Assembly (NCBI RefSeq): GCF_003334385.1
Contig: NZ_QOWN01000182.1
Length of the DNA stretch: 440 nucleotides
From: Escherichia coli
GTDB taxonomy: Bacteria > Pseudomonadota > Gammaproteobacteria > Enterobacterales > Enterobacteriaceae
Direction: 5' to 3' (one strand)
The notes under the pieces are model-generated. The model did not search any database, was not told the DNA's origin, and was given only the letters and a program-made list of their open reading frames with translations. Both the position numbers and the translations under genes were made by a program. Of this stretch, positions 1-440 are shown piece after piece. The number at the start of each line of letters is the position of its first letter. Position 1 is the stretch's first letter.

Positions 1-26
1 ATCTGACTCACAACATTATCCCGACC

Positions 27-33
27 GGGAGGA
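27..33 (+). promoter_or_regulatory. Shine-Dalgarno / ribosome-binding site (GGGAGGA) for the CDS starting at 37
   Basis: Seen in sequence: GGGAGGA at 27-33, a near-perfect complement of the 16S rRNA 3' end, with a 3-4 nt spacer (TTC) before ATG 37. The spacer is on the short side but within the functional range. Confidence 0.65.
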
Positions 34-36
34 TTC

Positions 37-440
37 ATGACATTTAAACACTACGATGTGGTCAGGGCGGCGTCGCCGTCAGACCTTGCGGAGCGACTGA
101 CACAAAAACTGAAGGAGGGGTGGCAGCCATTTGGCAGCCCTGTCGCCATCACGCCTTATACCCTGATGCAGGCCATTGCGGCGGAAGGTGATGTCACCAC
201 ACCTGTGGTGGTGAAGCCGTCGGATGGAGAAGGCACAGTTATCAGCACCACCAGCGAACCGGAGTATTACTTTGTTGTTGTTCTGGCGGGGCAGTCAAAC
301 TCAATGTCTTTTGGTGAAGGGCTGCCGCTGCCGGAGACATATGACCGTCCGGACCCGCGTATTAAACAGCTGGCGCGTCGCAGTACGGTGACGCCGGGTG
401 GTGCCGCCTGTAAATATAACGACATCATTCCGGCAGACCA
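37..440 (+). CDS. Prophage-type sialate (9-O-acetyl-neuraminate) O-acetylesterase, NanS-p-like; 5' portion only (DUF1737-like N-terminal module plus start of SGNH/SASA esterase domain), 3' end outside window
   Basis: Seen in sequence: frame +1 is open from ATG 37 to the window edge (134 codons), an in-frame TGA at 4-6 closes it upstream, and no ATG/GTG/TTG lies in frame between 7 and 36, so ATG 37 is the only possible start. Strong SD 4 nt upstream. Product call rests on recognition of the N-terminal sequence and the LAGQSNSMSFG block typical of sialate O-acetylesterase family SGNH hydrolases; this is recall, not a database hit. Confidence 0.75.
   Translation, partial: MTFKHYDVVRAASPSDLAERLTQKLKEGWQPFGSPVAITPYTLMQAIAAEGDVTTPVVVKPSDGEGTVISTTSEPEYYFVVVLAGQSNSMSFGEGLPLPETYDRPDPRIKQLARRSTVTPGGAACKYNDIIPAD
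248..255 (-). other. Chi octamer (5'-GCTGGTGG-3' on the minus strand; CCACCAGC on the plus strand)
   Basis: Seen in sequence: exact 8/8 match to the E. coli RecBCD Chi sequence on the minus strand. It only acts as a recombination hotspot in a host whose RecBCD recognises this octamer, and host identity is inferred, not shown. Confidence 0.45.

Follow-up and report, generated by a model that had tools for sequence, protein, structure and literature searches.

The stretch of DNA analysed here, 440 nucleotides of Escherichia coli sequence that we refer to as the window, is with a probability of roughly 0.9 the 5' end of nanS-p, a prophage gene for a sialate 9-O-acetylesterase. The gene would lie in the late operon of a lambdoid prophage that lacks stx, between the gene for the Q antiterminator and the holin–endolysin–Rz genes, with transcription driven from the promoter pR' with the aid of Q and the product released by lysis. 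This context is taken from matches that are identical or near-identical across the 440 bases and, because phages are mosaic, the true flanks may differ in detail. All parts of the finding are already known: the window is one more copy of a gene that is well described, found where it usually lies. For annotation, 440 bases suffice to recognise the late region of a lambdoid prophage in E. coli.

A DUF1737-SASA esterase gene

Read from the sequence, positions 1-36 of the window (plus strand) are the 5' untranslated leader of nanS-p, with a Shine-Dalgarno sequence, GGGAGG, at 27-32, four bases ahead of the ATG at 37-39. The frame that begins with this ATG has no stop codon as far as position 440, and positions 37-440 (plus strand) make up the first 134 codons of an ORF that continues beyond it, an assignment based on the translation and on identity to the copy of the gene in E. 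coli NCTC9112. A plus-strand open stretch of equal length was obtained in 370 of 20,000 mononucleotide shuffles. Between four close alleles, 17 codon differences are synonymous and four are non-synonymous; such a predominance of silent changes is what selection on a coding region should produce. The five remaining frames yield short ORFs (22-55 amino acids) that are all contained in the nanS-p frame and lack support. The window has a single promoter-like element (minus strand, 43 to 15, 9/12 matches), which runs across the start codon in the opposite orientation and was dismissed as chance.

The leader is the same in four alleles whose coding parts differ, whilst many more distant matches first align at query position 26-36, indicating that the shared module begins about there. 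A mosaic module boundary is thus predicted just upstream of the nanS-p ribosome-binding site.

At the protein level, the DUF1737 domain (Pfam PF08410) occupies residues 3-50 (window 43-186, plus strand), with an E value of 1.9e-16 on the 134 amino acid fragment and 2.3e-15 on the full 659 amino acid protein. An alignment of eight alleles shows residues 1-31 to be near-invariant and residues 32-49 (window 130-183) to form an indel-variable loop that exists in at least three variants, every one of which has a tyrosine (Y41 in the window allele). The same alignment defines an interdomain linker at residues 51-73 (GDVTTPVVVKPSDGEGTVISTTS; window 187-255, plus strand) that is rich in proline, threonine, serine and valine and is the most variable stretch among the alleles.

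Residues 74-134 (window 256-440, plus strand) form the start of the SGNH/SASA catalytic esterase domain. Pfam did not call SASA on the 134 amino acid fragment; the start of the esterase was revealed by a PDB sequence search, in which phmmer aligned window residues 74-132 with residues 17-75 of E. coli NanS (PDB 3pt5; E 9.3e-20), the GQSN block included. This block, SGNH block I, is encoded by GGG CAG TCA AAC at 289-300 (plus strand; Gly85-Gln86-Ser87-Asn88). It is invariant in 8/8 alleles and aligned with the AGQSN of NanS 3pt5, and its serine is presumably the nucleophile, going by what is established for SGNH hydrolases. Blocks II-IV fall outside the window. With these DUF1737 and NanS matches, the DUF1737-SASA esterase gene that the initial annotation had recognised in the window is confirmed. 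There is no hydrophobic N-terminus, the top 15-residue Kyte-Doolittle mean being 0.45, and hence no signal peptide is expected.

The full 659 amino acid protein, as encoded at the identical NCTC9112 locus, contains three Pfam domains: DUF1737, SASA (residues 81-276) and, beyond the window, a C-terminal DUF6645 domain of the lectin-like jelly-roll type (E 1.6e-32). Its residues 74-394 match residues 17-333 of NanS 3pt5 (E 3e-114) and residues 445-653 match the C-terminal domain of NanS-p in PDB 6yp6 (E 3.7e-48), the assignment of the C-terminal domain assuming that the source of the window has the same full-length gene as NCTC9112. Block IV is RKTH (esterase residues 368-371), with the histidine kept; this block has been reported as RSSH or RASH in NanS and NanS-p proteins, and as RPTH in one outlier (PMC10462455).

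Closest match and distribution

A base-for-base check shows the window to be 100% identical to positions 4592661-4593100 of the E. coli NCTC9112 chromosome, which are positions 15001-15440 of the locus (L001) whose coordinates are used below; here block IV lies at 16138-16149. Sixteen more chromosomes match the window at 99% identity or above. Of 5426 complete E. coli genomes, 1175 (~22%) have a match; the number of matching places in these genomes has a median of 5 and reaches 14 at most. That a host genome might carry several paralogous copies, a point raised by the initial annotation, is thus borne out, and NCTC9112 itself has 6 places matching the window.

Amongst sequenced phages, matches were found in 339 records by DNA search and in 350 by protein search. 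The named records belong almost entirely to phages of Escherichia or Shigella, and the majority are Stx-converting. The best phage match is to the non-Stx phage PhiR5_1 (L002) at 97.3%; the best match to an Stx phage has 89.5% DNA identity. Related copies are also present, at no more than 92% identity, in 13 records of a plasmid collection. Most of these records measure 0.16-1.4 Mb and one 48 kb, and they are probably chromosome pieces or excised prophage rather than cases of true plasmid carriage.

The NCTC9112 prophage

In NCTC9112, the gene is an intact CDS of 659 codons (L001 15037-17016, plus strand) annotated by RefSeq as a SASA family carbohydrate esterase. The Q antiterminator gene (13185-13580, plus strand; 'antiterminator Q family protein' in RefSeq and PHROG 79, 'anti-termination protein Q-like', E 2.9e-48) ends 1.46 kb before the esterase ATG and is itself preceded, on the same strand, by phage replication and nin-region genes. 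Downstream, the lysis cassette starts 0.74 kb past the esterase stop codon and comprises, all on the same strand as the esterase, a class II holin gene (17752-17958; RefSeq, PHROG 9876 and PHROG 20), a lysozyme gene (17963-18496) and a gene for the lysis protein Rz (18989-19447). The initial annotation had placed the window in the late region of a lambdoid prophage, between Q and the lysis cassette, and this is where its 100% identical counterpart lies. Farther on, RefSeq annotates genes for the terminase small and large subunits, the portal, an S49 peptidase, the decoration protein (gpD), the major capsid protein (gpE), FI and tail proteins including U and V (20976-30440). This layout is that of a lambda-like late operon.

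The portion between esterase and holin (17016-17752) holds overlapping DUF1378 and DUF826 ORFs, with a strong terminator-like hairpin at 17676-17704, before the holin gene. A 2026 preprint on the Pas sRNAs places PasA and PasC between the esterase and the holin; at the Rfam gathering threshold, 17016-17752 gave no match.

Two further features of the locus deserve mention. The portal gene is annotated as frameshifted (23572-25163), owing either to a sequencing error or to a defect of the prophage itself, and the NCTC9112 prophage may therefore be defective. At the other end, positions 1-1551 hold dsr1, an anti-phage sirtuin gene, ~0.4 kb from the first phage-derived ORF.

Terminators and small RNAs upstream of the esterase gene

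The 1.46 kb that separates Q from the esterase gene in NCTC9112 contains a conserved 65-codon ORF (PHROG 331) and two tandem copies of the small RNA STnc100 (Rfam RF02076) on the plus strand, at 14137-14342 and 14620-14829, scoring 141 and 166 bits. These lie ~0.2-0.9 kb upstream of the window, and both finish in an identical hairpin, AGCCCCTCTCCGGAGGGGCT, followed by a T-run. The same 2026 preprint describes sRNAs flanking the esterase gene and relates STnc100 to PasD. A minus-strand pseudogene with an 'internal stop' that RefSeq places over the first STnc100 copy (14156-14296) is probably spurious.

Terminator-like hairpins are abundant here: on the coding strand of 13100-17800 we found 16, against 5.4 +/- 2.5 in shuffled sequence. 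At least six lie between Q and the esterase (13580-15037, plus strand), at 13639 (found by eye), 13969, 14312, 14525, 14799 and 14908. The first of these, CCCGCC-GCCT-GGCGGG followed by TTTTTT at 13639-13665, sits ~60 nt past the Q stop codon and looks like the terminator tR'. A scan for the sigma-70 consensus returned no plus-strand match in 13100-17800, and neither pR' nor a qut site was identified.

The composition of this segment varies from locus to locus. In NCTC9112, ARAGORN finds no tRNA genes between Q and the esterase, whereas in 933W and several other loci the ileZ-argN-argO tRNA genes are found there; the segment may carry sRNAs only, a DNA methyltransferase gene together with ileZ-argN-argO, or other cargo. 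Strain EC2 has an IS1 insertion (L003 7147-7844) ~190 bp before the esterase ATG, after the sRNA/terminator region, and this might alter expression of the esterase.

The same layout in other loci, and the absence of stx

To see how general this arrangement is, twelve loci may be compared: L001-L008, L011 and L012, together with phages BP-4795 and 933W, picked from the top and at even steps of the identity ranking. In each of the twelve, the esterase gene is followed at ~0.65-0.75 kb by the start of a class II holin gene. A Q-type gene is found upstream in 11, the fetched flank of the twelfth being too short to tell. Neither nan genes nor a nan operon are present in any of the twelve loci read. 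The initial annotation had pointed to flanks with a nan operon, or without phage genes, as evidence against a prophage; with no nan operon in any locus, and with terminase, head and tail genes following in NCTC9112, the prophage reading stands.

These contexts bear directly on whether the window might instead derive from chromosomal nanS (yjhS) of the sialic-acid regulon and not be a phage gene at all. Residues 74-132 are indeed closely similar to NanS 3pt5. However, DUF1737 and the linker (window 43-255) have no NanS counterpart in the PDB match, and 12/12 contexts are prophage or phage late regions. A chromosomal nanS would also need a signal peptide in place of DUF1737, and this is excluded by the sequence. 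We consider a chromosomal origin so improbable that it can in practice be set aside, leaving a prophage nanS-p gene.

Is the prophage in question a toxin phage? In BP-4795 and 933W, stx1AB or stx2AB lies directly upstream of the esterase gene, ending ~0.5 kb before its ATG, in agreement with what the initial annotation had said of Stx2 phages. When StxA1, StxB1, StxA2 and StxB2 were used as tblastn queries, however, only these two control phages matched, and L001-L008 and L011-L013 gave nothing. At the loci with 98.9-100% identity to the window (L001, L003, L011 and L012), stx is absent in 4/4.

The possibility that the window comes from an Stx-converting phage, with the gene directly 3' of stxAB as in 933W, phi24B and BP-4795, has in its favour this upstream position in BP-4795 and 933W and the fact that the majority of the sequenced phages that carry the gene are Stx phages. 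That Stx phages are over-represented in the database, however, mirrors what was sequenced. No stx is found at the four closest loci or in PhiR5_1, and Stx phages resemble the window at best at the 89.5% DNA identity given above, with 933W at 66% in protein. An Stx-phage origin is accordingly very unlikely, and the suggestion in the initial annotation that the window might be near stx does not hold for this allele. On sequence grounds the window allele is assigned to a non-Stx lineage, and it points to a non-Stx prophage rather than to a toxin phage.

DUF1737 and the phage capsid

The window was initially described as holding no phage structural or lysis gene. This is correct as regards lysis genes, but the structural part of the statement is now questionable, since DUF1737 is reported to be bound to the capsid in phage phi24B (10.64898/2026.04.10.717836). 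That 2026 preprint identifies NanS-p of phi24B (gp84) as a virion protein by cryo-EM and proteomics, with residues 2-57, corresponding to DUF1737, forming a hexamer in the pore of the face-centre hexons of a T=9 capsid, where Tyr42 acts as a 'tooth' anchor. From their data its authors deduce that gp84 is cleaved just after Gly54, in the linker EG-SISSP (10.64898/2026.04.10.717836). The window linker occupies the corresponding position, reading EGDVTTP where 933W has EGSISSP, and by analogy the product of the window allele may likewise be cleaved there. The window allele is 64-66% identical to gp84 and has a shorter DUF1737 loop.

At a DNA identity of 99.8% or above, the allele adjoins two kinds of head module: a lambda-like gpD/gpE head in NCTC9112 and, in EC2 (L013 55-12601), a protease–capsid fusion head with HNH and terminase genes. 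As the EC2 capsid gene is frameshifted, we compared instead the annotated capsid protein of BP-4795, which has the same head type. BLASTP detected no similarity between the lambda-like capsid and this fusion-type capsid (E 0.38), and the two head modules beside the window allele appear unrelated. That the same allele is found beside differing heads indicates that the esterase/lysis module assorts independently of the head module.

How much weight should be given to the capsid when considering the function of NanS-p? One view would be that the protein mainly serves the phage, DUF1737 hexamers plugging the hexons so as to display and then release the esterase and lectin, with any growth benefit to the lysogen being secondary. 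If so, virions could attach to O-acetylated mucus or surface glycans, or pass through them. The presence of gp84 in phi24B virions, as a Tyr42-anchored DUF1737 hexamer on the central hexons, speaks for this, as do the position of the gene as a late gene next to the lysis and morphogenesis genes and the retention of the variable-loop tyrosine in 8/8 alleles. On the other side, the evidence for capsid binding comes from a single T=9 podovirus and from a preprint that has not been peer reviewed, the window allele differs from gp84 in sequence and loop length as described, and the same allele sits beside dissimilar heads, lambda-like in NCTC9112 and fusion-type in EC2. Furthermore, binding in phi24B is limited to flat face-centre hexons, of which a T=7 lambda-like head, by standard capsid geometry, should have none. 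A primarily phage-serving role is thus possible, although we do not think it the probable one.

A bolder proposal, which we regard as doubtful, is that DUF1737, should it indeed attach the esterase to capsids, serves as a transferable anchor able to occupy the central pore of hexons in many HK97-fold capsids. NanS-p would then be a glycan esterase displayed on the capsid in plug-in fashion, travelling with the lysis module and not with the head module. Alternatively, in lambda-like phages DUF1737 may merely oligomerise the enzyme. Capsid attachment would thus either work with HK97-fold hexon pores in general or play no part in these prophages; possible capsid binding of DUF1737 in lambda-like phages, like that reported for phi24B, is the point at which the window is of specialist interest.

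Proposed expression, release and function

Under the reading that we favour, in which the window is the start of a late gene for a sialate 9-O-acetylesterase, NanS-p would be a protein of three parts: an N-terminal DUF1737, a NanS-like SGNH esterase and a C-terminal lectin-like jelly-roll domain. The esterase domain would strip O-acetyl groups from Neu5,9Ac2 and mucin glycans. Biochemical evidence comes from related alleles: z1466 of 933W encodes an active Neu5,9Ac2 esterase and, whilst EDL933 and O104:H4 each have several prophage alleles, all of those tested gave active enzyme (reviewed in PMC8065619). NanS-p enzymes also permit growth on Neu5,9Ac2 and remove acetyl groups from mucin glycans (PMC8065619). 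For the window allele with its RKTH block IV, activity on Neu5,9Ac2 and mucin is putative.

With several intrinsic terminators ahead of the gene and no adjacent promoter detected, transcription most likely depends on pR' and Q and is carried out by Q-modified, terminator-resistant RNA polymerase. For the window allele, Q dependence is most likely on the combined grounds of gene order, terminators and literature. The gene would then be expressed upon induction, along with the lysis genes. In line with this, z1466 is among the most strongly induced genes, together with late genes (PMC8065619), and nanS-p is inducible with mitomycin C and occurs in non-Stx prophages too (PMC10462455).

With no signal peptide, the enzyme would be expected to meet its substrate via phage lysis and, in at least some phages, NanS-p may also reach it on the capsid, through DUF1737. 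Lysis is likewise the probable release route for the window allele. The freed enzyme would remove 9-O-acetyl groups from sialic acids, which surviving lysogens could then use, this last step being drawn from the literature.

Against any such scheme it might be held that the prophage is cryptic and decaying and that the gene, as an inert remnant of it, is neither expressed nor functional. Defective prophages are common in E. coli, the portal gene is frameshifted in NCTC9112 and, in EC2, IS1 lies 190 bp upstream of the gene. Yet the 659-codon ORF is intact in NCTC9112, most of the substitutions that distinguish the alleles are synonymous, catalytic block I does not vary, and the tested prophage alleles of EDL933 and O104:H4 were, as noted, all active (PMC8065619). 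An inert remnant is on this evidence unlikely, and a functional late gene remains the better account. In E. coli, nanS-p is a known phage-borne fitness gene that allows use of O-acetylated sialic acids from mucus, and this picture is unchanged here.

Comparison with known systems

For the NanS-p family, enzymology and a partial crystal structure have been published. The Q-to-S region was surveyed by Pascal et al. (2023), who described the gene order Q-stx-nanS-p-S, the three NanS-p domains and their variants, the SGNH blocks and the DUF826 and DUF1378 ORFs (PMC10462455). The window gene and its NCTC9112 counterpart resemble in most respects the NanS-p genes of 933W (L0105/z1466), phi24B (vb_24B_21/gp84) and BP-4795 ('YjhS'): they share the DUF1737-SASA-lectin-like layout, they occupy the same slot between Q and the class II holin gene, with DUF1378 and DUF826 in between, and likewise occur in several copies per genome. 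The differences are ones of detail. Over 134 residues, the window allele is 88% identical to BP-4795 and 66% to 933W; its DUF1737 loop is shorter; its linker has DVTTP in place of SISSP; its block IV is RKTH; and upstream there are two copies of STnc100 rather than stx or tRNA genes.

Compared with the chromosomal 9-O-acetyl-N-acetylneuraminate esterase NanS (YjhS; 3pt5), the SGNH/SASA domain is homologous over its whole length and has the same GQSN, but DUF1737 and the C-terminal DUF6645 of NanS-p lie outside the matched region (residues 74-394). NanS has a signal peptide and its gene belongs to the nan regulon, whereas the window gene is a phage late gene.

Finally, the NCTC9112 prophage keeps the order of the phage lambda late operon, with Q, terminators, lysis genes, terminase, portal, protease, gpD, gpE, FI, U and V, but differs from lambda in having ~4 kb of cargo between Q and the holin gene, made up of the small ORF, the two sRNA copies, nanS-p, DUF1378 and DUF826. 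In Stx phages and their relatives, this site between Q and holin usually serves as the 'moron' slot.
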